A stretch of DNA of 62,491 bases, counting the filler. It is 4 parts of 4 records of this genome, joined end to end, with 100 filler letters (N's around TTAATTAATTAA, not from the genome) between each part and the next. Parts side by side here need not be neighbours in the genome. Positions count along the whole stretch, not along the records: positions 48,712 to 57,111 come from SRR31156797_12404; 3 more parts are not named here. One strand, written 5' to 3'. The notes under the pieces were generated by a model. That model saw nothing but the letters and a program-made list of their open reading frames with translations. It did not search any database and had not been told where the DNA came from. Made by a program: the position numbers and the translations under genes. Below, piece after piece: positions 21,559 to 60,680 of the stretch. Every line of letters begins with the position of its first letter. The first letter of the stretch is position 1.

Positions 21559-21658
21559 NNNNNNNNNNNNNNNNNNNNNNNNNNNNNNNNNNNNNNNNNN
21601 NNTTAATTAATTAANNNNNNNNNNNNNNNNNNNNNNNNNNNNNNNNNNNNNNNNNNNN
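21559..21658. other. Artificial contig linker
   Basis: N run with a central TTAATTAATTAA (stops in all frames), 100 nt. Confidence 0.97.
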
Positions 21659-43888: not shown

Positions 43889-46456
43889 ATGGGAAAAAAT
43901 AAAAAAAACAAACAGAAAGTAAAAACAAAGAAAGAGTCGGTTAGCCTGCCTAAGAATGAATCTTTAAAAGAGAAAATTACCAAGGCCATGGGCGCGGGCA
44001 ATTTTTTGACTCCTGATTCTAATTTTAAGCCCGGTAGTATTGATATCAGCTCACTTCAAAAGGATGAAAGCCGGCTACCGAAAGCCGAAAAGTTATTGGA
44101 TGAAATTATTCAATTGCATGATGACCTGAAATTGAAGTCCGACGAGCTTGATAAGTCAAAGGAAGGCATAGAGGCCTTGAATAAGACCCTTAGCCAGGAG
44201 AAAGAAGAGCTTTCTATTCAGAAGAAGAAAATAGGAGAGATCAAAATTGAGTTGGCTGAGAAAAAGGAACAATTAGCTCAGACGGAATCACATCTTATAG
44301 AATGGGAGGATGACCTGGGTGAGCGGGAAGCCGAAGCAAAGGCCGGATTCTTGTCGGAAAAACAGAAGGCCTGTTTTGAAAAGAGAAATGCCCTGGATTC
44401 TCTTGATAAAGAACATAAAGAAAGGGCTGAAAAAAGATGGGCTGAAATTTTTGAAAGAGAAAAGCAGCTTGATGACCGGGATATGGAATTAGCCAGCCGG
44501 GAAGCCAGCGCCAATGCAGGGTTCATTGATGAAAAGAAAAAAGTTTTAGGAGAGTTCCAAAATCAGCTTGATGATAAGCACGAAGAATTAAAAGAACTCA
44601 GGCTGGCAATGGACACTGAAAAAGCCAAGCATGATGAGAAACTTGCCAAAGATAAGGGACTGCTCCTCCAAGAGATAAATAAGATTCGAGATGAGCATCA
44701 GGAAAAATTGGACAAGGAGAGGGCGTTGGTGGAAACCGAACGGTGCAGGCTTGAGGTTCGGCAAAAAGAGCTTGAACGGCACACACACCGCCTTGAAGTT
44801 CGAAAAAGTTCCCAGAGTGATTGGGAGCAAAGTGTAAAGGATGATCTCGAAGCAGAATTCAATTCTCAAATTATCAGCCTTGAAACTCAGCTGGAGCAGC
44901 TGAAAAACTATCGCAATAAAGACCTGGAGGATATTAAGGAACTTAATCAGGAATTGATCCAGTACGCCGATTTGAAAAAATCTCTGGACGGAGCCGGAAT
45001 AGAAGATGTTCAGGTTAAACTTGAGGAAGACCGCAAAGAGATAAAAAAATTAAAGGCTGAGCTTGCTGCCGCTCCCCGGGATGATTTGGAAGAAGAAAAC
45101 GACAGGCTTCTGGAGCAGATAGATGATCTGTCCGAGGAAAAGATTGAGCTTAAAACTGAGCTTTGGGAAGCAAAAAGCGAATTGGATAAAAACAGGTTAA
45201 GTGTGATGGCCAAACATAACCTGGTGAAAGAGAAAAAAGTGCTGGAACTCCATAATAAGACATTAGATTCAGCAATTGAAAATCTTCAAACGCAGGTGGA
45301 GGATCTTGTTGAAAAGCAGCAGAGCAGCAACGCATTTCCGGCATTGTGCAAGCTTGATAAAGATCATAGTCGAGATGGTGTGAATCTCCAGGTTGTTCCG
45401 AACCTCAAAGCGTTCGCCGAACAGATGCGAATGGGAATGGCCTGTATTTATCCCGAAACGCCGCTTTATTACCGCAGTGAAGATGTGCGCTTGTTCCTTG
45501 GCGGCTTGGCTATGAGCAATCTTCATATCCTTCATGGTATGTCTGGTACAGGTAAAACGAGCCTTGCCAAAGCGTTTACAAAGGTCGTGGGCGGAGAGTG
45601 TACTGACATTGCCGTTCAGGCCGGATGGCGGGATAAGGATGATCTTCTTGGCCATTTTAATGCGTTCGAGAAAAAATTCTATGAACGGGAGGCGCTTCAG
45701 GCTATTTACAAAGCACAACTGCCAGAGTTCAAAAACCGAATAAATGTGGTTTTATTGGACGAAATGAACCTTTCCCGGCCTGAGCAATACTTTGCGGAGT
45801 TTCTGTCTGCCATGGAAAAACAGCCCGATCAACGTGAGATTGTTCTGCTTGAAAGTGAACTTCAAAATGCGCCGAGGTTATTCAAGGACGGGCGTAAAAT
45901 AAAAATTCCTGAGAATGTATGGTTCATCGGGACAGCGAATCATGATGAAACAACCAATGAATTTGCAGATAAAACCTATGACCGTGCCCATGTAATGGAG
46001 CTGGGCCGTAGTGACGAAAAAATTGGCACGGATGATTATGAGCAGACAACATATCGTTTCTCATCCCTGAAAGACTTATTCAGGTCGGCCAGCCTAAAGC
46101 ATTGTAAAAAGGTTGGGTCAATTTTCAAAGAGTTTGAAGAAAGTATTTTGGCGGAGGTTCTGGAAGGAAATTTCACTGTTCGTTGGGGGAACAGGCTCCG
46201 GGAGCATGCAAAAAGATTTATCCCGGTTGTTATAGAAGCCGGAGGTTCTTTTGAGGAAGGGCTGGACCACTTGCTGGCATCAAAGGTGTTTAGAGATGGA
46301 AAGGTTACCGGACGGTTTGATACCGTTTTAAAAGATCTTGATGACGTCGAGGAGGCATTGCTCGAAACATGGGGGGGGATTGGATTAAAAAATGATCCAG
46401 CCAAAGCTTTGGCCTGTATAAAGCAAGACAAAAGGAGGATGGAGCGTGGCGCATGA
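43889..46456 (+). CDS. McrB-like AAA+ GTPase with about 400-aa N-terminal coiled coil (CnuB-like)
   Basis: GMSGTGKT, LLDEMNLSRPEQYFAEFLS, McrB-type GTANHDE; long K/E/L heptad region. Confidence 0.85.
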   Translation: MGKNKKNKQKVKTKKESVSLPKNESLKEKITKAMGAGNFLTPDSNFKPGSIDISSLQKDESRLPKAEKLLDEIIQLHDDLKLKSDELDKSKEGIEALNKTLSQEKEELSIQKKKIGEIKIELAEKKEQLAQTESHLIEWEDDLGEREAEAKAGFLSEKQKACFEKRNALDSLDKEHKERAEKRWAEIFEREKQLDDRDMELASREASANAGFIDEKKKVLGEFQNQLDDKHEELKELRLAMDTEKAKHDEKLAKDKGLLLQEINKIRDEHQEKLDKERALVETERCRLEVRQKELERHTHRLEVRKSSQSDWEQSVKDDLEAEFNSQIISLETQLEQLKNYRNKDLEDIKELNQELIQYADLKKSLDGAGIEDVQVKLEEDRKEIKKLKAELAAAPRDDLEEENDRLLEQIDDLSEEKIELKTELWEAKSELDKNRLSVMAKHNLVKEKKVLELHNKTLDSAIENLQTQVEDLVEKQQSSNAFPALCKLDKDHSRDGVNLQVVPNLKAFAEQMRMGMACIYPETPLYYRSEDVRLFLGGLAMSNLHILHGMSGTGKTSLAKAFTKVVGGECTDIAVQAGWRDKDDLLGHFNAFEKKFYEREALQAIYKAQLPEFKNRINVVLLDEMNLSRPEQYFAEFLSAMEKQPDQREIVLLESELQNAPRLFKDGRKIKIPENVWFIGTANHDETTNEFADKTYDRAHVMELGRSDEKIGTDDYEQTTYRFSSLKDLFRSASLKHCKKVGSIFKEFEESILAEVLEGNFTVRWGNRLREHAKRFIPVVIEAGGSFEEGLDHLLASKVFRDGKVTGRFDTVLKDLDDVEEALLETWGGIGLKNDPAKALACIKQDKRRMERGA

Positions 46457-48342
46457 TTTTGTATGATCGATTGACAGATACCAGGATTCCAGTTGATGAT
46501 TTACAGGATCATGTATTGCCCGAAAGATACCAATTGACCTGCGGGGCATTAATTAATGGGCATACCCATGCATCTGCCGGTGATGTCCTGGTGACCGATG
46601 GCACCTATAAACTATCATTTAATGGCCACAACCTTCCTTGCTGTGAAACGGTTGCGGGCAAGGAGGAACTGCCAGAATTTGAAATTGTTGTGAAAGCGCT
46701 TTTTCAAATAAATAAGGCTTTAATTGAAATTGATAAGGAGGGGGACGGTCAATTACCCTCTCCGCTTGTTCCCAGCCAGGTGTTTGATGATGATGGTGAT
46801 TTAAATCAACTGGAGGTCCTCCTTGGTAAGGTGCTGGCGAAGGGGCACCTTCATGAAATAAATCGCCGACCCCGTATTGATATGCGTTATGATGACATGG
46901 TGTTGCCTGTCAGTCGAGCTAAGCGTCTGGCTCCTTCTGCGCACCGGCATCTTGCTGCTCAATCCGAATGCTGGCAGAGAAGGACCTTGACCGGAATTCA
47001 GCCGAAAAAAATTATGGGCCAGATTAGTGAGGATGAATATGCACTCTATGAAAATAAGGTGTATGCACGGCTGTTGGATCGGCTTGATCGCCTATTAAAT
47101 AAAAGGTTGCAGGAGTTGAACGAGCTGCTTAGCAATTTGGATGATGTTCTCGAATTGGAGAGCGCAGACACTTTGAATTATCGATTTAGAAACAGTCTTT
47201 TTGGGTTGTGGGGAGAAACATTTACCTCCATGGAAGCCGTTTCTCTCACTCGGGATAAAATTGAAACAGTTCAAACCCGCCTTAAAGAATATTCAAAATC
47301 CATAAGGGGGTTAATCCAGAGCGATTTGTATAATCGGGTGCCTCGGAATGCCCAGATTGCAACCAAAATTCAGCTGACAAACATTCTTGCCCATGACCAG
47401 CATTACCGATTTATAGTCAAATTATGGAATTCGTCCCTTGAGGCCAATGATAAGAATTCATTACCGGAGGAAAAGTATAAAAAAAATGCGGCATTACAAC
47501 AGGCCTACATTAATTATTGCAAGTTATTGATCGTAAGATCTTTAGGCGAACTGGGGTATGATTCAAAACGCAAAGGGATAAATGGCTGTAAGTTCACATC
47601 TATGGGGCATGAATTAATTGTCACCTTAAAAAATACTAACTGGGAGATAGAGAATAAAAGAACTGGCCAGAAATTGGTTCTTGTCCCAATTGCCTCCTGG
47701 AATTCAACAGGGTTAGAAACAATACAAGAGGGGAATAAACTTATCATTCCGTGTTGTTTAAATAGCCAGGGTGACCCATTCGTGTCCCCGTCCGATTGGA
47801 TAGCCGGGAAATATACTGGCCCGCTTGTTCTTTCTCCCATGGATTTTTATGTCCAAGAGCGATTGGTTGTTATTCTTAAAAGTTGGATCCTGCTCAAGCC
47901 GTTTAGTGAATATGGTAAATTGATCACAAAAATACCAGGAGCGGTCATGCCTCAATTCAAGAAGCTAAAAGAGTGCAATGTGGAGGGAGAGTATTCAGTA
48001 CGCTTGCTGCAGCCAATATCTAAAAATGCATATGAACTTATATTGAATGATCTGAAGGCGGCTAATGCCAATATAAGCCATGAGCAGTTTGAAACAGCCA
48101 TGGCGTTTATGGATCAAATTTCAAGATGTCCTTTTTGTCAAGAAAAGGCAAGTTTGACACCATGGCAAGGTCGGCAGGCATTTAAAGCCATTTGCCCCCG
48201 CAGTGATTGTCAGCTTGAGTGGGGTATTTATTATGGCGACAGCGAGAAACCTGACGTGAGCTTTTCTACAAAGGATCAGAAGAAGGGCAGGTTCAAGACC
48301 AATGGCCGTTGGTTTGATCAATATGAGCTGATACGATCTTAG
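46453..48342 (+). CDS. McrC/DUF2357-like protein with C-terminal Zn finger (CnuCD-like)
   Basis: ATGA overlap with the McrB-like gene; LPVSRAKR and YENKVYARLL; C-terminal CPFC...CPRSDC. Confidence 0.7.
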   Translation: MILYDRLTDTRIPVDDLQDHVLPERYQLTCGALINGHTHASAGDVLVTDGTYKLSFNGHNLPCCETVAGKEELPEFEIVVKALFQINKALIEIDKEGDGQLPSPLVPSQVFDDDGDLNQLEVLLGKVLAKGHLHEINRRPRIDMRYDDMVLPVSRAKRLAPSAHRHLAAQSECWQRRTLTGIQPKKIMGQISEDEYALYENKVYARLLDRLDRLLNKRLQELNELLSNLDDVLELESADTLNYRFRNSLFGLWGETFTSMEAVSLTRDKIETVQTRLKEYSKSIRGLIQSDLYNRVPRNAQIATKIQLTNILAHDQHYRFIVKLWNSSLEANDKNSLPEEKYKKNAALQQAYINYCKLLIVRSLGELGYDSKRKGINGCKFTSMGHELIVTLKNTNWEIENKRTGQKLVLVPIASWNSTGLETIQEGNKLIIPCCLNSQGDPFVSPSDWIAGKYTGPLVLSPMDFYVQERLVVILKSWILLKPFSEYGKLITKIPGAVMPQFKKLKECNVEGEYSVRLLQPISKNAYELILNDLKAANANISHEQFETAMAFMDQISRCPFCQEKASLTPWQGRQAFKAICPRSDCQLEWGIYYGDSEKPDVSFSTKDQKKGRFKTNGRWFDQYELIRS

Positions 48343-48611: not shown

Positions 48612-48711
48612 NNNNNNNNNNNNNNNNNNNNNNNNNNNNNNNNNNNNNNNNNNNNTTAATTAATTAANNNNNNNNNNNNNNNNNNNNNNNNNNNNNNNNN
48701 NNNNNNNNNNN
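48612..48711. other. Artificial contig linker
   Basis: N run with TTAATTAATTAA, 100 nt. Confidence 0.97.
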
Positions 48712-48775
48712 TTGCCGCATAAAACTTTAACGAAGTATTGTAAGTTTATATGAGGAAAATAATCAGTCGAATAGG

Positions 48776-49498
48776 ATGCTTTATAGCTATCATTATTTGC
48801 ATCAGATTGATAAAGCTAAAGGGAATTTTAGTAAAGCATATAAAGATTTAATAGAATATGTCAATTTAATTGATAAAACTTCATCTAATGAAAAGGTTCG
48901 TATGTCTAAGGTGTTGGAGATTAATAATAAGGTTGATTTAATGAAGAGCCAATTGGTACAGTTAAAAGCGGAGAAAAAAGCCAGTGAATTTATGTTAACG
49001 CTTGTTATTGTGATCACTATTGGAATTTTGGGTGGAATAGGGATTTATATCTATCTGTACCAAAAAGAAAAAAGGGCTAAAGTTGAAGAGCTAAATAAGG
49101 AATTTCATAATTTGTTAATTGGTATTGGAGAGAAGCAATTATTGGAACACCGTTTAAGTAAAAGCTCTAAGGATAAAGAAATACAATCGGAACAAGTGAA
49201 AGTATTTCCTGTAAATGTAGAAGAGAGTGACTTGGGAGATAGTTTTGACAGTTGCTATATGGAAACTATTAATTTATTTACAGATGCATTTCCTCAATTA
49301 ACAAAAACGGAGGTGAGGTATGCTGTAATGTTGTGTTTAAAGTTACCGATGGAAGTAATTTCAAAAGTGCAACATGTTCAAATAGCTTCAATTAGAAAAG
49401 CCAAACAAAGAATTCGAATTAAATTGGATGTCGAAGGCAGTTTGGAAGATTATTTACAAGAATTTAGAGAAAGATCTATCTCAAGTTTGGCTGTTTAG
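48776..49498 (+). CDS. C-terminal part of TPR-TM-HTH (LuxR-like) membrane regulator, 5' truncated
   Basis: TPR-like helix (YLHQIDKAKGNFSKAY), one TM, C-terminal FPQLTKTEVRYAVMLCL...IRKAKQRIRIKL typical of Bacteroidota regulators. A possible 1-nt frameshift lies near 48745-47. Confidence 0.75.
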   Translation: MLYSYHYLHQIDKAKGNFSKAYKDLIEYVNLIDKTSSNEKVRMSKVLEINNKVDLMKSQLVQLKAEKKASEFMLTLVIVITIGILGGIGIYIYLYQKEKRAKVEELNKEFHNLLIGIGEKQLLEHRLSKSSKDKEIQSEQVKVFPVNVEESDLGDSFDSCYMETINLFTDAFPQLTKTEVRYAVMLCLKLPMEVISKVQHVQIASIRKAKQRIRIKLDVEGSLEDYLQEFRERSISSLAV

Positions 49499-49638
49499 GC
49501 TAACACAATAAAGGTTATTTTTTTATTTGTATGTACGAAATCGATCATTTTTGTACATTGAAACTTTTAGAGTAAAAAAACATTGTTTTTTTTCTTTAAA
49601 AGATAGGTTTGTATTGATTTGAATATGAGGTAAAAGTG

Positions 49639-49705
49639 TTTTGTCACGCTTTTGTCACGCTTCAAATTCTTCTTTTTATTTGCACCCCTTCATATTTGTG
49701 ACAAA
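49639..49705. promoter_or_regulatory. Tandem 11-bp direct repeat plus inverted copy, candidate operator
   Basis: TTTTGTCACGC at 49639-49 and 49650-60; inverted GTGACAAA at 49698-705. Confidence 0.6.
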
Positions 49706-49725
49706 CAACTAAAACAACGTTTGTC

Positions 49726-49944
49726 ATGAAAAATTTATTAAGATTTTTATTCGTATTTGTAATTATATCTTTTTCTACAATAATTTCAGCTATAGAAAAG
49801 GAGGATCCAATTGTAATTGTTAGAGGGGAGGTCGCTAAAGAAGATCCAATTGTAATTGTGAGAAATAGTCTTTCAAAAGAGGATCCAATCGTTATTGTAA
49901 GATCAGGGGTGTCGAAAGAAGATCCAATTGTAATAGTTAGATAA
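49726..49944 (+). CDS. Secreted multi-core peptide precursor: signal peptide plus 4 x KEDPIVIVR
   Basis: 22-aa Sec signal ending ISA; cores at 49798, 49837, 49876 and 49915 (39-nt period) differ only at synonymous positions. Confidence 0.85.
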   Translation: MKNLLRFLFVFVIISFSTIISAIEKEDPIVIVRGEVAKEDPIVIVRNSLSKEDPIVIVRSGVSKEDPIVIVR

Positions 49945-49953
49945 ATATCAAAA

Positions 49954-50319
49954 ATGTCCTGCACATCAATACAGAGGGAGGTAATTGAAGTGGATATAAG
50001 TAGGTTTATAACCATTGATGATGTAGTGTCTAATGTACAGGAATTTTTAGAATTCAATCATAAATATGCTTCACAATACTTGTTGTTGGTAAATGCTACA
50101 AATTGTAGAACCAATATTGTTATAAAGGATTTGGATTACTTACAATCATTGAATACGGAGCTTGCCGAAAAATTTTCCTTGTTAAAGGTGGCGGTTATTG
50201 TAAATGATCCTGTGTATACAGCAATATGTATGGTTTACCAACAACTTATTAAAATGAAATACTATCATTTTAGAGTTTTTTCAACAAAGCTGGCTGCACG
50301 AAGGTGGTTGTTAAGTTAG
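49954..50319 (+). CDS. SpoIIAA-like / STAS-SEC14-like small protein
   Basis: LLLVNAT...KVAVIVNDP...FRVFSTKLAARRWL; starts 9 nt after the peptide gene. Confidence 0.6.
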   Translation: MSCTSIQREVIEVDISRFITIDDVVSNVQEFLEFNHKYASQYLLLVNATNCRTNIVIKDLDYLQSLNTELAEKFSLLKVAVIVNDPVYTAICMVYQQLIKMKYYHFRVFSTKLAARRWLLS

Positions 50320-50483: not shown

Positions 50484-50523
50484 AAATCCGTTACATACTA
50501 AACGTAGTATGTAGCGGATTTTT
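50484..50523 (+). terminator. Intrinsic terminator
   Basis: AAATCCGTTACATACTA-aacg-TAGTATGTAGCGGATTT followed by TT. Confidence 0.7.
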
Positions 50524-50627: not shown

Positions 50628-51077
50628 ATGAGTACTTCATATAAAATTAAATATAAATTTCTTGAGGAATTTAATTTATTAGTAGAGCATCATAGTGGTA
50701 ATGTAAAACTGGAAACAGTTATAGAATCACGTGTGCGATTAAGTGAATTAAATAAGTTAAATACTGAGTCAAAATTTTTAATTGATCTAAGAGAGTCACA
50801 TTTCTCCAATGACATAGATAAAGTTAAGGAGTTTGTTGTGTACCTAAATGATAATTTTGCCTCTCTTTTAAAGAATCAAATTGTTTTTATTACCGAAGAA
50901 GCTAATCAATTAGCTATGGCAACTCTCTTTAAAATGTATCAAAAAGATAAAGCCAGAAATATTCATGTTTTTTCCAGCCTTGATTATGCACTTCTTTGGT
51001 TAAGAGTAGATGTGGATATTGCAGATATGGAAATAATGATCAAAGAAAAAATGGAAACATTACTTTCCTATTCTTAA
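50628..51077 (+). CDS. SpoIIAA-like / STAS-SEC14-like small protein
   Basis: FLIDLRES...IVFIT...IHVFSSLDYALLWL. Confidence 0.6.
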   Translation: MSTSYKIKYKFLEEFNLLVEHHSGNVKLETVIESRVRLSELNKLNTESKFLIDLRESHFSNDIDKVKEFVVYLNDNFASLLKNQIVFITEEANQLAMATLFKMYQKDKARNIHVFSSLDYALLWLRVDVDIADMEIMIKEKMETLLSYS

Positions 51078-53054: not shown

Positions 53055-55253
53055 TTAAATAATTAGTAAACCTAGTTCTTTTAATTTTTGAAAGGTAAAA
53101 CTGTGTATAAATATAGGAAAATCACCTAAATCATGTTGATTGTAGCATTCTTCAAGTTGCGAAAAAGTAAAATCTTCAGTATTGCTAATATGACATTGCT
53201 TCAGTATTTCAAATATCCAATTGCCTGATTTTTCTTTGATTTGCAAAGATTCAGAATGACTCAATAAATGAAATGTTAATTCAGCCATAGAAGTTGATTT
53301 GCCTTTTTTGCGTTTAGTGTAATGTTTAATTTCAGGCATTGATTCAGGCCAAATTATTTTCGATGAAGGACTTTCTAAACTTTCATGTTCCTTAGATAAA
53401 CATTTTTGGATGTAATTTTTAGGTATCGTTGTTTTAGGAATTCGAAAATCAAACCAATCTTGAAGTGGAAAATCAATTCCAACATCATGCATGTAGTTAT
53501 AAATCGATTTTTTCAAACCTTCGCTAAATTGTGAGTGCAATGCACCATGTTGATCAATGTGGGTTAAATCATTATTGGCAAAAGGATTATTGGTGTTACA
53601 AGTGATTTGAATACCAAATTTGTCTGGATTTTTACCAACCGGACTATGCGCTGTTAGTGCAAACTGATGCCAAAATCCGGATAATATAACTTTTGCTTCA
53701 AATAACTGCCTTACAATTTCAAGTGCATCAATGGTTTCTTGTTCTGTTTGAGTTGGAAATCCATACATAAGATAGGCATGGGTCATGATTCCCGCTTGAG
53801 TCAGGTTATCACAGACTTGAGCAACTTTAGAAACACTTACTCCTTTGTTGATAAGAGAAAGAATTCGATCGGATGCTACCTCTAATCCGCCGGAAACAGC
53901 AATACAACCTGATCGTTTTAGCAATCGGCAAGCATCACTTGTGAAGCTTTGCTCAAACCTTATGTTGGTCCACCAGGTAACATTTAATTCACGTCGGATT
54001 ATTTCTTTTGCAAGCGATATCATTAAGGCTGGAGGAGCAGCTTCATCAACAAAGTGAAACCCGGAACAACCCGTTTGTTCCATTAGAGTTTCCATCTTGT
54101 CGCATAATGCATGTGCGGTGCCAGGCTCGAATCTTGCAATGTAATCCAGAGTTGTATCGCAGAAAGTACATCTTTTCCAATAGCAACCATGTGCCATGGT
54201 TAGCTTGTTCCAGAAGCCATCACTCCAAAGACGGTGCATGGGGTTGGTCATTTCAATTACAGACAAATATCTATCGGGAAATAATCCTGAATAATCAGGC
54301 GTAGGTGTGTTTCTAAATCTTAAGTCTTTACTAGTGGGAGAGTTCAGATAAACTAATTCTTTATCTTTTAAAGTAAATGTTCTAAGCAAAGAGTCTAAAG
54401 AACACTCCTTATTTGTGTATTTTATGATTTGATGCAAAGGAACTTCTCCGTCATCAAGGGTAATAAAATCGATGAATTCAAATATTCTTTTGTCCTGTAT
54501 CGATCTTAATTCCGTGTTAGGATATCCTCCTCCTAATACTATTTTTATGTCAGGATAATGCAATTTAATAAACTGTCCGCATTTTAAAGCGGCAAATAAA
54601 TTGCCAGGAAAAGGGACAGATAATCCAATAATGTGGGGCTTATGTTTTTGAATGGCTTTGGTTAAGATTTGTTCCTGAAAATGAATAATTAGAGAATTCT
54701 CTTGGGTTAATTCGTTGTAAATGTTGTCAAACGTAAAAGCAGAAGAACTAAGTCTTTCTGCATACCTGCTAAAGCCAAAGTGCTCATCTACATTTTCAAC
54801 AATAAAATCACTAATATCCTCTAAAAATAAAGTAGCCAGATGTCTTGCTTTATCCCGGATTCCCATATTTCCAAAACTCCAGTCCAAGTCATCAGTGTGT
54901 TCAAAGCGACTCGCTTGAGGTAAAAACGTAGTTTCACAAATGGTATGCGCTAGCATTTCGTTTTTACCTTGCAAAAACATAATTACATCATCAATACAGC
55001 TTTCATATCTCTTTCTTAAAAACATGATACGTTTGCTGTTATAGGATAATTCTATGTTGGTTGATTCAACAAAATCAAATATTTGAGTTAAACCTTGTTG
55101 AGAAAATATTTTTAAAAGCAGTTCGAGTCCTAAATCAAGCTGACCTCCATTGATACTTATTTCTTTTAAGTAGCCTAAAAGATACGAGGTAGAAGGATAC
55201 GGAGTATTTAGTTGGGTAAAAGGAGGAGTTATTAATAGAACCTGTGTATTCAA
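53055..55253 (-). CDS. B12-binding radical SAM protein
   Basis: PPFTQLNTPYP, LGGGYPNTELR, CYWKRCTFC (CxxxCxxC), HFVDEA. Confidence 0.9.
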   Translation of the reverse strand: MNTQVLLITPPFTQLNTPYPSTSYLLGYLKEISINGGQLDLGLELLLKIFSQQGLTQIFDFVESTNIELSYNSKRIMFLRKRYESCIDDVIMFLQGKNEMLAHTICETTFLPQASRFEHTDDLDWSFGNMGIRDKARHLATLFLEDISDFIVENVDEHFGFSRYAERLSSSAFTFDNIYNELTQENSLIIHFQEQILTKAIQKHKPHIIGLSVPFPGNLFAALKCGQFIKLHYPDIKIVLGGGYPNTELRSIQDKRIFEFIDFITLDDGEVPLHQIIKYTNKECSLDSLLRTFTLKDKELVYLNSPTSKDLRFRNTPTPDYSGLFPDRYLSVIEMTNPMHRLWSDGFWNKLTMAHGCYWKRCTFCDTTLDYIARFEPGTAHALCDKMETLMEQTGCSGFHFVDEAAPPALMISLAKEIIRRELNVTWWTNIRFEQSFTSDACRLLKRSGCIAVSGGLEVASDRILSLINKGVSVSKVAQVCDNLTQAGIMTHAYLMYGFPTQTEQETIDALEIVRQLFEAKVILSGFWHQFALTAHSPVGKNPDKFGIQITCNTNNPFANNDLTHIDQHGALHSQFSEGLKKSIYNYMHDVGIDFPLQDWFDFRIPKTTIPKNYIQKCLSKEHESLESPSSKIIWPESMPEIKHYTKRKKGKSTSMAELTFHLLSHSESLQIKEKSGNWIFEILKQCHISNTEDFTFSQLEECYNQHDLGDFPIFIHSFTFQKLKELGLLII

Positions 55254-55704
55254 TTTAATTTGTTTTAGAAAGCAAAATTATAAAAATACTTACGCCCAAT
55301 GCAAATACCTTCAATTCATTTTCGATTGGCTGAGTAAAGCTAAAGTAATTTGAATCTAAATTAAGAATCATCTTCTTATTAAAGTATTTTAATTGATATT
55401 TTTAATGTGCAGTATATCAGTGATTAAGGAGTGTGTTTTTGATTTTTTTGATTATTAGATGAACTTTTTAGCGAAACCTTTTAAGAATACTTTCGTTAAT
55501 GTTGACAAATGATTAGAAAAATATTACAAAAGGATGTTTTTTAATGATGAATGAATAGTGAAGGTGCCCGCGAGGTTGAAATAAGTTTTGGTTTTGGGGA
55601 AAATCAAAAAAATTAAAATTCAACAATCGTACTCTTTTAAATTACATAAAGATTTAATATTTTCGACGACACAACAACACAACACAACAACACAACTTAT
55701 TGAC

Positions 55705-57018
55705 ATGCTAAAATTTACTTTTTTATCGCTAATAGTGTGGGGACTAGCGATTCAGGTTACTTCAGCCCAAGGTGGCACATCTTGTGAAAACGCATTAGTT
55801 TCAGATCAAGGTTTTAACATTGCAAACAACTCAGAAGGAGATCAGTGGTATACTTATGTACCAGATCGCGACGGTAAAGTATTGGTTTCAACATGCGGAC
55901 AAACTGACGCAGATACTTATGTAGAAGTTTTTGACGGATGTGGTTACGAACCTATCGCAGTTAGTAATGATTATTGCGGAAAACAAGCAGAATTAACGTT
56001 TCAGGTTAAAGGAGGCGAAACCTACTGGATTTGTTGGAGAAGTTATTATACAAGTCAGGATTACGAATGGTTTATGAATGAATCAACTTCAAAAGCTGGT
56101 GAGTTTTGTAGTAACCCAATAACCGTATCTGAAGGAGCGAATGTAGGTACAATTCCAACTAAATTTTACAGATGGTACGAGTTTACAGCAACTCGTAATG
56201 GTAAAATTACTGTAGAAGCCATGAGTGAAGTAGTAGGCGACTGTAAAGTAGCTATATTTAACGATTGTTCTTATACTGGAAGTTTAAATACTGATGATAA
56301 CTGGAATCCATCAAAAACAGCCTTTGAAGGTGTAGCAGGAAATTCATACTTAATTGCTATTTATAATGAAGGTAGCAACGAAACAGTAAATTGGTCAGTT
56401 ACTGAAGGTGACTGGGAAGCTGGCGAGCGATGCGAAAATGCAATAAGCATCAGTAGTATTGAAGGAATGGCGATAGATCATACTTCAGGAACAGATAAGT
56501 GGTATGCTTACCTTGCACTTCAGGATGGCGATATTACTATATCTTCTGTAGGCGTAACAAGCGAAGATACTTACCTTGAGGTTTACGAAGGGTGTAATTC
56601 AGAGAAGGTTGCATTTAGTGATGACGCTAACGGTTTACAATCAGAGATAGTAATCAATGCTACAGCAGGTAATATTTACTATATTAAGTGGGATGATATT
56701 TTCCAACCACAACAATATGCAATGAGCCTTAAAGCTGGAAATCTAGCAACAGACGTATCGCAACTTGAAGAAAACAGTACAGTAGGTATTTATCCAAATC
56801 CATCAGTTGATGGACAGGTACAAGTTGATCTTACAAGTTTTGAATCGGACTTGGTAACTGTTAGTGTGGTGAGTTTAACCGGAGCTACAGTTCAGGTTGC
56901 TAAATTAGCTGGAGGACAAGTAGTACCACATGATTTATCTCAACTATCTCCAGGTATCTATAATATTGTATTGGAAGATGTACAAACAAGAAAAGTTGTT
57001 AAGTTTTTGAAGAAATAA
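55705..57018 (+). CDS. T9SS type-A CTD secreted protein with three Cys-rich repeats
   Basis: Signal peptide from ATG 55705; three repeats of G..C.N....WY....DG/NG.I; C-terminal IYPNP...LSPGIYNI...KFLKK. Confidence 0.82.
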   Translation: MLKFTFLSLIVWGLAIQVTSAQGGTSCENALVSDQGFNIANNSEGDQWYTYVPDRDGKVLVSTCGQTDADTYVEVFDGCGYEPIAVSNDYCGKQAELTFQVKGGETYWICWRSYYTSQDYEWFMNESTSKAGEFCSNPITVSEGANVGTIPTKFYRWYEFTATRNGKITVEAMSEVVGDCKVAIFNDCSYTGSLNTDDNWNPSKTAFEGVAGNSYLIAIYNEGSNETVNWSVTEGDWEAGERCENAISISSIEGMAIDHTSGTDKWYAYLALQDGDITISSVGVTSEDTYLEVYEGCNSEKVAFSDDANGLQSEIVINATAGNIYYIKWDDIFQPQQYAMSLKAGNLATDVSQLEENSTVGIYPNPSVDGQVQVDLTSFESDLVTVSVVSLTGATVQVAKLAGGQVVPHDLSQLSPGIYNIVLEDVQTRKVVKFLKK

Positions 57019-57111: not shown

Positions 57112-57211
57112 NNNNNNNNNNNNNNNNNNNNNNNNNNNNNNNNNNNNNNNNNNNNTTAATTAATTAANNNNNNNNNNNNNNNNNNNNNNNNNNNNNNNNN
57201 NNNNNNNNNNN
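57112..57211. other. Artificial contig linker
   Basis: N run with TTAATTAATTAA, 100 nt. Confidence 0.97.
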
Positions 57212-57595: not shown

Positions 57596-58969
57596 ATGAA
57601 AACACATATAATTATTTTGACGGTTCTTTTTTTTATGATATTTTCTTACGGATTTCCACAATCCACTTTTAGAAAAACTATTGATATTGGTGAAAATGAT
57701 CGTGGCACGTGCATAAGCCAAACAACTGATGGAGGATACATAGTGGCAGGAAGCACCTATACAAGCCCTGACAATTCGGACATCGTGTTGGTGAAAACAG
57801 ATGCCTTTGGAGATACAGTCTGGACCAAAGTATATGGTGGTGAATATGCCGAAGAAATTCACTGTATAAGAGAGACTTTAGACAATGGATTTATTATAGC
57901 AGCCACGTCAAATAGTTTTGGCGGGATAAACGGAAAAGCCTGGATAATCAAAACCGATGCTGACGGAGATACGGTTTGGTCCAAGGTGATCGATGGGAGA
58001 ATAAACCATATTTTGCAGTCTGACGATGCATCATATTTCCTGGTTGGTCGTGATACCACTTATTCGAAAGCGTCAATGATAAAGCTGAACCCATCTGGAG
58101 AGCTGCTTTGGTCGAAGAGTTATGGTTTTAGTAAATGGTTTTATAAGGCAATCCCAGTTTCAGATGATAAAATTCTGATTGGCGGACTGTCGCGCTCATC
58201 TCAAACACCTCACCCTACTACTATTGATCTCTTTATGACGAATCATAGTGGTGATTCGCTTTGGTTTTCACAATATGGCGGCACCCACATTTATAGCTAT
58301 TTGTCATTGCTAAATACCTTCGATGGTGGCTATCTGATTTGTTCGAATCAGACAATATTTCAGGAATATAGTGATATGTACCTTCACAAAGTAGATTCGT
58401 CCGGTAATACAGATTGGGTGAAAATATTTGAAAATGAGAATACATGGGAATATGCCCACTCTGTGGTTCAAATTAATGATTCAGGTTATGTGATTACCGG
58501 GGATACACAAGAACTGGGATTGGCATTGATTAAAACAAATCCTGATGGAGACATTGAATGGGAGATAAGCTACGATACTGATTCACTCCGTACCTCAGGA
58601 TATTGCCTGCGAAACACAACTGATAGTCATTTAGTGGTTAGTGGAGAGGCTTTGAATATTTACACCGGAAAATCGGATATTATACTATTGAAGACAGATC
58701 AGGAGGGTATGATAACCAAGATCTCTGAAGTAAAAAAAGAAAAGGAAATAACAATTTTCCCCAACCCAAATCGGGGCGACTTTCATATTCAACTGCTCGA
58801 GGGTGATCAGGAGGTCATGATTTATGACTTGAGTGGCAGGCTGATTTTTGACCAAAGGATTAGCCGTAATGCAACAATTCTAAAGATTGACGGGCTAAAA
58901 TCAGGAAGTTACGTCATCCACATTAAATCTGAACAATATTACAGAACAGCCAGGGTACTGGTATTATGA
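57596..58969 (+). CDS. T9SS type-A CTD secreted beta-propeller-like protein
   Basis: Signal peptide, repeated QT.DGGYI / K.D..GD..W.K blades, IFPNP...LKSGSYVI CTD. Confidence 0.85.
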   Translation: MKTHIIILTVLFFMIFSYGFPQSTFRKTIDIGENDRGTCISQTTDGGYIVAGSTYTSPDNSDIVLVKTDAFGDTVWTKVYGGEYAEEIHCIRETLDNGFIIAATSNSFGGINGKAWIIKTDADGDTVWSKVIDGRINHILQSDDASYFLVGRDTTYSKASMIKLNPSGELLWSKSYGFSKWFYKAIPVSDDKILIGGLSRSSQTPHPTTIDLFMTNHSGDSLWFSQYGGTHIYSYLSLLNTFDGGYLICSNQTIFQEYSDMYLHKVDSSGNTDWVKIFENENTWEYAHSVVQINDSGYVITGDTQELGLALIKTNPDGDIEWEISYDTDSLRTSGYCLRNTTDSHLVVSGEALNIYTGKSDIILLKTDQEGMITKISEVKKEKEITIFPNPNRGDFHIQLLEGDQEVMIYDLSGRLIFDQRISRNATILKIDGLKSGSYVIHIKSEQYYRTARVLVL

Positions 58970-59471: not shown

Positions 59472-60680
59472 GTGTCATGTCAAGTTTGAATTGACGGATA
59501 TAATCGTTTTAGTTTTATTCTTGAGTCCTTTGTTGTAAACTGCCAGTTGATCACAGCATGTTTGTTATTCCTGTGTTTTTGCCAAGCTTTTACTTGTTTG
59601 GCAACCTCATCAATATTATCAATCCGCCTGCTTAAGCACTGACTATTCAATACCTGTAACTCAATTTCTGCCATATTTAGCCAGCTTCCGTGTTTTGGTG
59701 TATAGACAAAATCAAACCTATCCCATATTCTTTTCGCTTCTTTTGGCGAAAACTTTTCATACAAGGCTCCTGGTTTATGTGTGTTCAGGTTGTCCATCAC
59801 CAATGTGATCTTTTTTGCAATTGGATAATACTCATCTGCTATTTCTTTTATCAATTCCGCCCAATCAAGTTTTGTCTTTCTTTCCGTTATTTTAACATAC
59901 CTCTTTCCTGCAAGTGGTTCGTTTACCATAAAGATATTGCAGGTTCCTTTTCGGACATATTCATAATCAACCCTGCGTTCTTTACCTATTCCCACTGGTG
60001 TACCGATCCTCGTTTCTCCTATTAATTGTTTTGGCGATTCATCCATACAGACAACCGGATTTTTATCATCATATGGTCGCTTGTATACATCTAAAACGTT
60101 TTCCATGTTAGCAACAAATTCGCTGTCAGAGTTTGGCGGAATCACCCATCCTTTAACTTTCCAGGGTTTGATTTCGTTTTTTTAAAACGGTACGTACCGT
60201 TTCATGGGATATTGAGCCAACTACTTCAAGCTCTACCAACTTATCTGCTAATAGCCGTAACGACCAACTGGAAAAGCCTTCAGGCGGCTCGCTACAACTC
60301 AAAGCAATCAAACGAGCTTCAAAATCACCATCAGCCTTCCTTTCATACTGTCGGGTGGTTGGCTTTCTTTCCAACACAGCATCGAACCCATCTTCAACAA
60401 ATCGTTTCTTTACCCTGTCTATCGTTCTCATACCAATCTTTAAAACGTTGCATATTTCAGCATTGGTTACTTTGTCAGAAAACTCACCCTGGTCACAATT
60501 TAAAAGAACGTATGCAGCCCTAAATTTCTGAGATGTGTGCTTTCCTTTAGCTACAATACTCATCAATACATCTCGCTCATCTTTAGATAATGTTACTTTA
60601 TACCTTGCCATGATTATTATTTTTGAATTACCATGGCAAAGATAATCAATATTTACGTCATATTATAATTGACATGACAC
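59472..60680 (-). mobile_element. Complete IS630-family insertion sequence
   Basis: Terminal IR GTGTCATGTCAA / TTGACATGACAC with an aligned internal TGACG; TA duplicated at 59470-71 and 60681-82 within a CTAG target. Confidence 0.92.
59480..60611 (-). CDS. IS630 transposase, OrfA/OrfB joined by -1 frameshift
   Basis: OrfA HTH (WSLRLLA); slippery TTA AAA AAA C at 60176-60185 giving LKKNEIKPW; DDE residues in VCMDE, VMDNLNTH and WLNMAEIE. Confidence 0.9.

Follow-up and report, generated by a model that had tools for sequence, protein, structure and literature searches.

What role can be played by a small secreted protein consisting of little more than identical copies of a nine-residue sequence, and why does its gene lie directly downstream of that of a membrane regulator? 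The question is raised by one locus of the stretch of DNA analyzed here (the window, 62,491 bases), which is made up of four contigs joined by N44-TTAATTAATTAA-N44 (carrying stops in all six frames) at positions 21559-21658, 48612-48711, and 57112-57211; since the contigs were concatenated, adjacency across the join points is meaningless. The peptide gene and a fragment of the regulator gene are located on the same contig (48712-57111, SRR31156797_12404). It is proposed here, tentatively, that they represent a processed-peptide signaling cassette, i.e., a self-activating pair formed by a regulator and a pro-peptide. The following features are relevant to this proposal:

49726..49944 (+): pre-pro-peptide gene, 72 amino acids (aa), recognized as an open reading frame (ORF) and by its repeat anatomy and homologues
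49726-49791 (+): predicted signal sequence, MKNLLRFLFVFVIISFSTIISA, read from the sequence
49798-49824, 49837-49863, 49876-49902, 49915-49941 (+): four KEDPIVIVR cores, from the translation
49639..49662 (+): tandem 11-bp operator, TTTTGTCACGC x2 (TRF: period 11, 2.2 copies, 100% match)
49691..49698 (+): (G/C)ATATTTG box, candidate -7 element, at a fixed distance of ~38 nt after the operator in 10/10 aligned promoters
48776..49498 (+): C-terminal 240 aa of a ~550-aa regulator with tetratricopeptide repeats (TPR), a transmembrane (TM) helix, and a putative DNA-binding domain (ORF and orthologue alignment)
48992..49060 (+): predicted TM helix, with a Lys/Arg-rich stretch after it, LTLVIVITIGILGGIGIYIYLY QKEKRAK, read from the sequence

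The initial annotation had described a 72-aa ORF with a signal-like N-terminus and four copies of KEDPIVIVR, and this description was confirmed. The N-terminus shows the usual parts of a Sec signal (basic residues, a hydrophobic stretch of 14 residues, and I-S-A preceding the cleavage site) and can be regarded as a predicted Sec signal; the remaining part reads IE-KEDPIVIVR-GEVA-KEDPIVIVR-NSLS-KEDPIVIVR-SGVS-KEDPIVIVR-stop. Over the homologues described below, the units can be summarized as [KRED]-E-D-P-I-[IV]-[IV]-x-x and a linker of 2-4 aa, and they recur every 11, 13, or 15 residues; the E-D-P of the core does not vary, and nearly every unit has a Lys or an Arg. The first core begins exactly at the predicted signal cleavage site in loci L035 and L038, and the stop codon directly follows the last core in nearly all the homologues, so that the mature product would consist only of cores. 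The AF2 model of a nine-unit homologue has a mean pLDDT of 51.6 (44-50 in the mature part), and this lack of a confident fold is weak but consistent evidence for a processed peptide. Trimming of the even-length linkers (2 or 4 aa) by dipeptidyl peptidases would fit every allele seen, but even lengths follow automatically from unit periods of 11, 13, and 15, and the idea thus deserves little weight. Other explanations of the ORF were considered and rejected, namely a DNA slippage artefact, leader-peptide attenuation, a lipoprotein (no Cys is present), and a substrate of the type IX secretion system (T9SS; the peptide has no C-terminal sorting domain).

Information on the function of the peptide comes from the comparison, by Nei-Gojobori counts, of the units embedded in one and the same gene, performed on nine genes (that of the window and eight homologues). 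In the window, the four 27-nt cores differ from each other only at third codon positions (AAG/AAA, GAG/GAA, ATT/ATC/ATA, GTT/GTG/GTA), in line with the purely synonymous variation that the initial annotation had noticed; the core has 21 synonymous and 0 nonsynonymous differences, and the proportion of nonsynonymous differences (pN) of the spacers is 0.625. Over the first seven core residues, pN = 0 in six of the nine genes (0/100 sites in the window, 0/350 in L035, and 0/255 in L038), the corresponding synonymous value (pS) of five of them being 0.43-0.85 and that of the sixth, the two-unit gene of L033, 0.25; the remaining three genes show a pN of 0.013-0.064. The linkers are freely variable in the window (pN, rounded, 0.63), L035 (0.52), L034 (0.49), L032 (0.29), and L038 (0.24). 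The sister species G481 and G482 have six identical KEDPIIIGR cores and five linkers that are all different, and the number of copies varies while the core remains the same (three units in P0009 vs. seven in L035). Each copy of the core is individually held to one sequence, as would be expected if the peptide were released and would be unusual if the repeat were purely architectural; the initial annotation, which had read selection from this pattern, is borne out on this point by cores with pN = 0 and diverged synonymous sites.

Relatives of the peptide are few among called proteins: a search of 5.8 billion proteins yielded 627 candidates, just one of which, from Labilibacter sediminis (4x KEDPIVIGR), is a relative. 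Most of the homologues are absent from the protein collection as called genes. A genome scan retrieved the L. sediminis locus and that of a Saccharicrinis metagenome-assembled genome with nine units, with one copy per genome, and the exact back-translated double-core pattern occurs in 1 of 401 order-level genomes, i.e., the reference itself, in a sample holding few genomes of the genus. A profile search of 1.84 billion representatives gave 39 proteins with E <= 0.001; 12 of these, together with P0001, were inspected, and the 12 comprise five true homologues and seven unrelated repeat proteins without a signal peptide. The representative library adds a 4x REDPIIIMD allele and P0009, which is a three-unit version of the seven-unit gene of L035. 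Scanning metagenomes with the peptide retrieved no relative, and scanning them with the regulator fragment retrieved a single 1-kb contig, adding a 5x REDPIIIQR allele; a search of the ESM Atlas returned hypothetical clusters only (score 0.77). Of the public runs listed as carriers, none is recorded as RNA.

Orthologues of the regulator were found in nine genomes of an 81-genome family-level sample and in 22 of the 23 genomes belonging to the genus of the nearest relative (marine Bacteroidota). In 19 of these 22 genus loci, a tandem TTTTGTCACGY box is followed, 83-89 nt later, by the ATG of an intact signal-peptide ORF with 2-9 units; two others (G464 and G489) have box and cores, with the frame broken within the signal-peptide part, which could be due to sequencing error, decay, or on/off switching. 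Box and cores are thus located downstream of the regulator in 21/22 orthologous loci of the genus. As for the two broken frames, that of G464 (L036/L079) lies at a run of eight T, and that of G489 is the one of L095.

A second set of loci is independent of this synteny. Nine regulators that are ~30% identical to the orthologous ones are embedded in other contexts, with no adjoining homologues of the symporter, GH20, radical-SAM, or STAS genes that surround the locus under study. In four of the nine (L040, L041, L044, and L045), a tandem box, TTTGTCACAC x2 or variants of it, is located 87-93 nt before a small signal-peptide ORF, and these ORFs carry acidic-Pro motifs (GEIDPDVKP, DEEDPVEIDPTEDP, DDPPPKDEDD, and DEDDPTLSP). 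Three more loci harbor candidate secreted peptides with no recognizable box, one of them containing 3x DEDDPIILPTDI; as for the last two loci, boxes precede other genes in the first, and nothing of the kind was found in the second. The small ORFs were chosen by a crude signal-peptide rule and are to be considered candidates only. This recurrence is the best synteny-independent evidence that regulator, box, and secreted peptide would belong together. The initial annotation had named the absence of conserved linkage in relatives as a refuting outcome; this outcome was not observed, the linkage being conserved in 21/22 orthologous and 4/9 paralogous loci. A second type of small secreted peptide was also observed near paralogous regulators (L041 11422-11637, L045 near 9761 on the minus strand, and L046 2499-2702), in which an acidic (D/E)EDDP stretch precedes a W(I/L)(L/M)x(I/L)(L/I)G tail at the C-terminus.

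The tandem repeat that had been reported before the peptide gene is real. The operator, TTTTGTCACG(C/T)TTTTGTCACGC, is invariant in 10/10 aligned promoters, the surrounding intergenic DNA being unconserved, and its pattern matches the window once (0.04 matches expected); the (G/C)ATATTTG box after it resembles what we take to be the Bacteroidota -7 consensus, TAnnTTTG. Allowing at most one mismatch, the genomes of five relatives contain 8, 3, 6, 4, and 4 box sites vs. 0, 0, 0, 0, and 1 for a reversed-pattern control. The further sites (L049-L072, TTGTCACG-N3-TTGTCACG) are located ~85-130 nt before other genes, coding for an HGD-D-like protein, an Endonuclease_NS protein, membrane proteins, small helix-turn-helix (HTH) proteins, a TonB_C protein, and a STAS-like protein. 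Three targets recur across species, namely the HGD-D-like protein of 465-473 aa, the Endonuclease_NS-domain protein of ~475 aa, and a membrane protein of 77-80 aa; the box-bearing promoters can be considered a candidate regulon. In genome G458, six box sites and just one protein with the C-terminal domain of the regulator (E <= 0.01) are present, which fits one regulator with a small regulon, even though another factor could use the box. Operator words are also common to other contigs of the probable source run.

The comparison with G458 further revealed that the peptide gene is the center of a divergence hot spot. The identity between the window and G458 is 94-98% over two STAS-like genes (STAS1 and STAS2, described below), the GH20 gene, the radical-SAM gene, and a gene with a T9SS tail; it falls to 57% in the signal part and 53% in the mature part of the peptide gene, where KEDPIVIVR faces EEDPIIVVR. 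In the regulator, the identity is 92.8% in the cytoplasmic part, 90.7% in the TM helix, and 84.1% in the periplasmic stub, where the contig ends; the intergenic DNA is 79% identical in the regions flanking the operator and 92% in the segment from the box to the ATG. In a contig of run X2, both flanks are kept and 216 nt are replaced by 234 other letters; X2 is possibly the source of G458 and is thus not independent of it. The pattern is that of an allele replacement centered on the peptide gene and reaching into the sensor-coding part of the regulator gene, as in pherotype loci. Co-variation was assessed on 18 of the 21 core-bearing genus loci (L084 was dropped because of a stop in the regulator, L092 and L093 because motif-based extraction did not recover them): the core distance correlates with the sensor distance with rho 0.47 and with the cytoplasmic distance with rho 0.40, both values being confounded by phylogeny.

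As regards the regulator itself, the initial annotation had proposed a TPR-TM-HTH receptor. A predicted TM helix was recognized in the window, whose copy is a C-terminal fragment; the TPR part is found only in the orthologues, and the HTH has no Pfam counterpart. The ORF begins 64 nt from the contig start and encodes the cytoplasmic domain, the TM helix and, before it, a periplasmic stub of ~70 aa; in-frame homology to the relatives extends upstream to ~48742, and an in-frame stop occurs at 48728, 17 nt from the contig start. Aligned to nine full-length orthologues (546-564 aa), the fragment corresponds to their last ~240 residues, and it is closest to that of G458 (94% identity over the matching part); the N-terminal half is not found elsewhere in the window. 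The full-length orthologues contain, in order, a signal-like N-terminus, ~350 residues with TPR matches, a coiled stretch, one TM helix and, after it, YQKxKKAK, a juxtamembrane segment with almost no variation (ELNKEFHNLLIGIGEKQLLEHRL), and a highly conserved C-terminal domain. Their Pfam matches are to generic TPR families (TPR_12, TPR_2, TPR_1, and TPR_8), and the profile matches in the PDB are TPR proteins only. By the positive-inside rule, given the Lys/Arg-rich stretch after the TM helix, the TPR region is predicted to lie outside the cytoplasm and the C-terminus inside it, in support of the initial annotation, in which the precursor would be cut in the periplasm. The DUF6377 match of the window fragment is below threshold (13.2 bits vs. 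a cutoff of 36.7), and DUF6377 is absent among the Pfam matches of the full-length orthologues at E 0.1; the NCBIfam model BT3442_fam is also matched below threshold (39 bits vs. 940). No Pfam or NCBIfam match links the regulator to the Rap, Rgg, NprR, PlcR, or PrgX families, and the annotations of the homologues of Saccharicrinis, Labilibacter, and Plebeiibacterium do not go beyond 'tetratricopeptide repeat protein', 'transcriptional regulator', or 'hypothetical'. One further observation concerns L084 (G482), whose regulator gene contains one in-frame TAG, yet its six-unit peptide gene is intact.

According to the mechanism proposed here, the intact regulator would be a single-pass membrane protein with its TPR domain facing the periplasm, and its conserved C-terminal domain would, in the cytoplasm, bind the tandem TTTTGTCACGY boxes; the peptide gene directly downstream would be driven by one set of them. 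The product would be exported by the Sec system as a chain of only 2-9 copies of the nonapeptide [KRED]EDPI[IV][IV]xx separated by 2-4-aa linkers, which envelope proteases would cut into single core peptides. These peptides, or the repeat protein itself, might then bind the TPR domain and thereby determine how active the regulator is at its own peptide promoter and at the few other promoters preceded by boxes; in the first case, they might pass from cell to cell. The logic would resemble that of the Rap-Phr/RRNPP systems, with sensing placed outside the cytoplasm, so that no re-import would be needed.

Several observations weigh against this proposal. In L001, L002, and L037, the linkers are conserved too (pN 0.07, 0.03, and 0.08, respectively), so the statement of the initial annotation that the spacers are fully diverged, which holds for the window and some relatives, is not general; a structural repeat of whole units would fit these three genes equally well. 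The co-variation between core and sensor is not separable from phylogeny, and the core of L088 is unchanged at a sensor distance of 22%. One of the 22 genus loci (G483) has the regulator with neither box nor peptide, and no such peptide was found with the query used elsewhere in its 4.4-Mb assembly. The C-terminal domain has no Pfam match even at E 10 and no sequence match in the PDB, so that a DNA-binding role might be assigned to it only by comparison with SusR, which has a C-terminal DNA-binding domain that also differs from the known ones. The receptor of the window is cut at the contig start and has no TPR domain, and in this organism the cassette is possibly not intact. The tandem box is not private to the peptide promoter (3-8 sites per genome) and precedes unrelated genes, and the peptide could thus be just one output among others. 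Lastly, a peptide of ~1 kDa must still cross the outer membrane in order to act between cells. The predicted complex between the periplasmic domain of the G458 regulator (residues 28-377) and the mature peptide, with a score of 0.02, speaks neither for nor against binding.

The alternative that best survives these data, even though it appears somewhat unlikely, is that the repeat protein remains uncut in the periplasm and acts in an autocrine fashion as a multivalent, disordered ligand or feedback modulator of the TPR domain, resembling the Cpx-induced periplasmic protein CpxP, which feeds back on its sensor. The linkage, the operator, and the selection would be the same as for a processed signal; several identical units would suit multivalent binding to a dimeric or clustered receptor, the conservation of the whole 13-aa unit, linker included, in L001, L002, and L037 fits such a ligand, and neither a linked protease or exporter gene nor an obvious route across the outer membrane was recognized. 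However, the linkers are nearly free in five of the nine genes (pN 0.24-0.63), and the number of copies ranges from 2 to 9 with the same core, which argues for the single core as the functional unit. The replacement of strain-specific alleles is the usual mark of intercellular signals, though not exclusive to them.

It is unlikely that the peptide is a mere output of the regulon (antimicrobial, adhesive, amyloid-like, or surface-active), with the TPR sensor responding to something else, e.g., to a glycan as SusR does. In such a case, the presence of the box before many unrelated genes, the GH20 gene and the sodium:alanine symporter homologue flanking the locus, and the Ile/Val-rich strands, which AF2 predicts as short beta segments in the nine-unit homologue, would find a place; hypervariability is also a common trait of loci for bacteriocins and surface antigens, and SusR-like regulators of this architecture sense sugars (PMC3878776). 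Nevertheless, the peptide gene is the one target that stays with the regulator, both in the orthologues and in the unrelated contexts of the paralogues, whereas the synteny of GH20 and symporter is confined to the genus and no susC/susD pair is adjacent. Moreover, the core has no net charge and a length of only 9 aa, none of the linked genes is a membrane gene of the immunity type, and the product has no confident AF2 fold.

A multi-core precursor of a ribosomally synthesized and post-translationally modified peptide (RiPP), modified by the B12 radical-SAM enzyme of the locus, e.g., by C-methylation of Ile/Val, is very improbable. The cores are indeed Ile/Val-rich, the radical-SAM gene is syntenic in 9/9 orthologous loci of the family sample, and its best NCBIfam match is TIGR03975, 'RiPP maturation radical SAM C-methyltransferase'; but this match scores 94 bits vs. 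a cutoff of 282, the gene is located on the other strand behind the GH20 gene, and the synteny of the block is just genus-wide. The Sec-type signal is not a RiPP leader, the precursor would leave the cytoplasm unfolded, and no genes for a recognition element, a transporter, or a protease are linked. The initial annotation had noted no adjacent RiPP-modifying enzyme, and this still holds, the radical-SAM gene lying 3 kb away and having no homologue in the paralogous cassettes. As for the possibility that no gene exists, i.e., that the DNA tandem repeat is open by chance or that the overlapping 131-aa antisense ORF (49662-50057) is the real one, it can practically be dismissed (and the antisense ORF was rejected as a gene) even though gene callers missed most homologues, since the differences between repeats all fall at third positions of the plus frame, and 19 species have retained the signal peptide, a fixed spacing between the promoter box and the start, and a stop codon right behind the last core despite synonymous saturation.

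The proposed signaling cassette shares with the Rap-Phr/RRNPP systems of Firmicutes a TPR-type receptor gene followed by a small gene for a pre-pro-peptide with a Sec signal, strain-specific alleles, and a self-regulated pro-peptide gene (self-regulation being proposed in the present case). Some Phr precursors, encoded beside TPR receptors, contain several identical or near-identical copies of the mature peptide (PMC5199041). The differences are, however, substantial: the organisms are diderm Bacteroidota, the TPR domain is predicted to be extracytoplasmic and tethered by a TM helix to a putative DNA-binding domain, so that neither a cytoplasmic receptor nor a peptide re-imported through Opp is expected, and the core has 9 aa in up to nine copies. 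Besides, and unlike Rap, NprR, PlcR, and Rgg, the regulator matches generic TPR Pfam families and none of the sequence families of these receptors. Given the membrane anchor, the predicted extracytoplasmic TPR, and the lack of family homology, it is not a member of RRNPP. The RRNPP_Detector survey concerned only Firmicutes (PMC10075063).

The predicted architecture of the regulator matches that of the SusR-like/DUF6377/BT3442-type regulators, with a signal or TM N-terminus, a periplasmic TPR sensor, a TM helix, and a cytoplasmic C-terminal domain. SusR-like proteins have this architecture, a DNA-binding domain unlike standard families, and predicted motifs that are direct repeats, as reported in PMC3878776. 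In contrast to them, the regulator matches the DUF6377 and BT3442_fam models only below threshold and is not encoded beside susC/susD, its direct repeats are adjacent (11 bp from center to center vs. 67-77 bp apart), and its conserved neighbor is a peptide gene rather than genes for glycan use.

Outside bacterial regulators, yeast alpha-factor and FMRFamide-type prohormones also combine a signal peptide, tandem identical units, and short drifting spacers; the kingdom, the processing enzymes, and the receptors are different and the spacers described here lack dibasic Kex2-type sites, so the likeness is only an analogy. RiPP precursors such as those of cyanobactins and graspetides may likewise contain several core peptides, but here a Sec signal replaces the leader, no modifying enzyme, protease, or transporter is adjacent, and most cores have no Cys, Ser, or Thr. 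To our knowledge, peptide signaling through TPR receptors has been treated as a Gram-positive trait, and literature searches, at the level of listings and of the passages cited here, turned up no peptide/TPR-receptor system in Bacteroidota.

If the proposal were true, a major diderm phylum would be added to the bacteria that communicate by peptides, and sensing by TPR could take place outside the cytoplasm, through a DNA-binding receptor of the one-component type. The SusR-like/DUF6377 class, which is poorly understood, would have a ligand other than a glycan, and a bacterial parallel to the eukaryotic multi-copy prohormones would be available. The broader claim, i.e., that no earlier peptide-pheromone system is known in Bacteroidota and that the receptor represents a new class for bacterial peptide signals, is doubtful; according to it, a one-component membrane regulator of the SusR type would read, through a periplasmic TPR domain, a 9-aa peptide released in 2-9 copies from a precursor resembling a prohormone, strain-specific alleles (pherotypes) would be maintained within species, and the paralogous pairs would make it a family of channels rather than a single case. 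Since cultured carriers exist (L. sediminis CG51 and Saccharicrinis species), the proposal is directly testable. Even if no signal were exchanged, up to seven identical 9-aa copies maintained despite synonymous saturation are unusual and need explaining.

The other features of the contig are the following:

48712..48741: contig-start 30-mer, common to two other contigs of the probable source run
49954..50319 (+): STAS1, SpoIIAA/STAS-like protein, 121 aa, 9 nt after the peptide stop (AF2, Foldseek)
50484..50521 (+): terminator-like hairpin with a 17-bp stem, apparently closing the peptide-STAS operon
50628..51077 (+): STAS2, second, distant STAS-like paralogue, 149 aa, behind the terminator; it aligns with STAS1 (shared VFS..A..WL)
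53055-55253 (-): B12-binding radical-SAM protein, 732 aa, with a C-x4-C-x2-C motif, 3 kb from the peptide gene

The 30-mer occurs once in the window, does not align to the 97%-identical relative, and ends two other contigs, of 4858 nt and 1019 nt, the latter at about twice the depth. The shared 30-mer and the double depth are the pattern expected of a two-copy repeat, possibly an insertion sequence, abutting the regulator gene; the regulator may thus be either interrupted in this organism or just unassembled.

The STAS1 gene falls within the range considered by the initial annotation, which did not describe it. Its Pfam matches to DUF7793 and SpoIIAA-like are below threshold, but the AF2 model (pLDDT 83.5), in which helices flank a four-stranded beta-sheet, superposes on SpoIIAA, the top Foldseek matches being 2q3l_A (DUF3478, SpoIIAA-like fold; E 1.4e-4, TM-score 0.63) and SpoIIAA itself (1thn_B, TM-score 0.65), so that a SpoIIAA/STAS-like fold can be confidently predicted from the model. 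No gene for a partner kinase or anti-sigma factor was seen in the locus. Since STAS1 starts 9 nt after the peptide stop and is followed by the hairpin, peptide and STAS1 look like one operon and are probably co-transcribed. STAS2 is present in 5/9 loci of the family sample; STAS-like genes are missing from 2/9 of them, and one paralogue located elsewhere has its own box, suggesting that these genes are members of the regulon rather than core parts of the cassette. The radical-SAM protein shows 60-68% identity across the genus and is linked to the locus only by genus-wide synteny. The neighbors of the regulator are the symporter, the peptide gene, the STAS-like genes, and GH20, with no adjacent genes of susC/susD size.

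Some minor observations concern other parts of the window. On the previous contig, at 43889-48342 (+), the gene of an 855-aa protein, whose N-terminus is a long coiled coil and which has an AAA/AAA_5 ATPase domain, overlaps by 4 nt that of a 629-aa protein without a Pfam match, which ends in Cys-rich motifs; the two might presumably represent a McrBC-like or other defense pair. Two secreted proteins with type IX C-terminal sorting domains (Por_Secre_tail) are encoded at 55588-57018 and 57596-58969 (+). At 59480-60611 (-), the transposase of an insertion sequence is encoded in two pieces 7 nt apart, one with HTH_32/HTH_29 (ORF of 152 aa) and the other with DDE_3 (ORF of 221 aa), which we take to be the layout of IS630-type elements with a frameshift.

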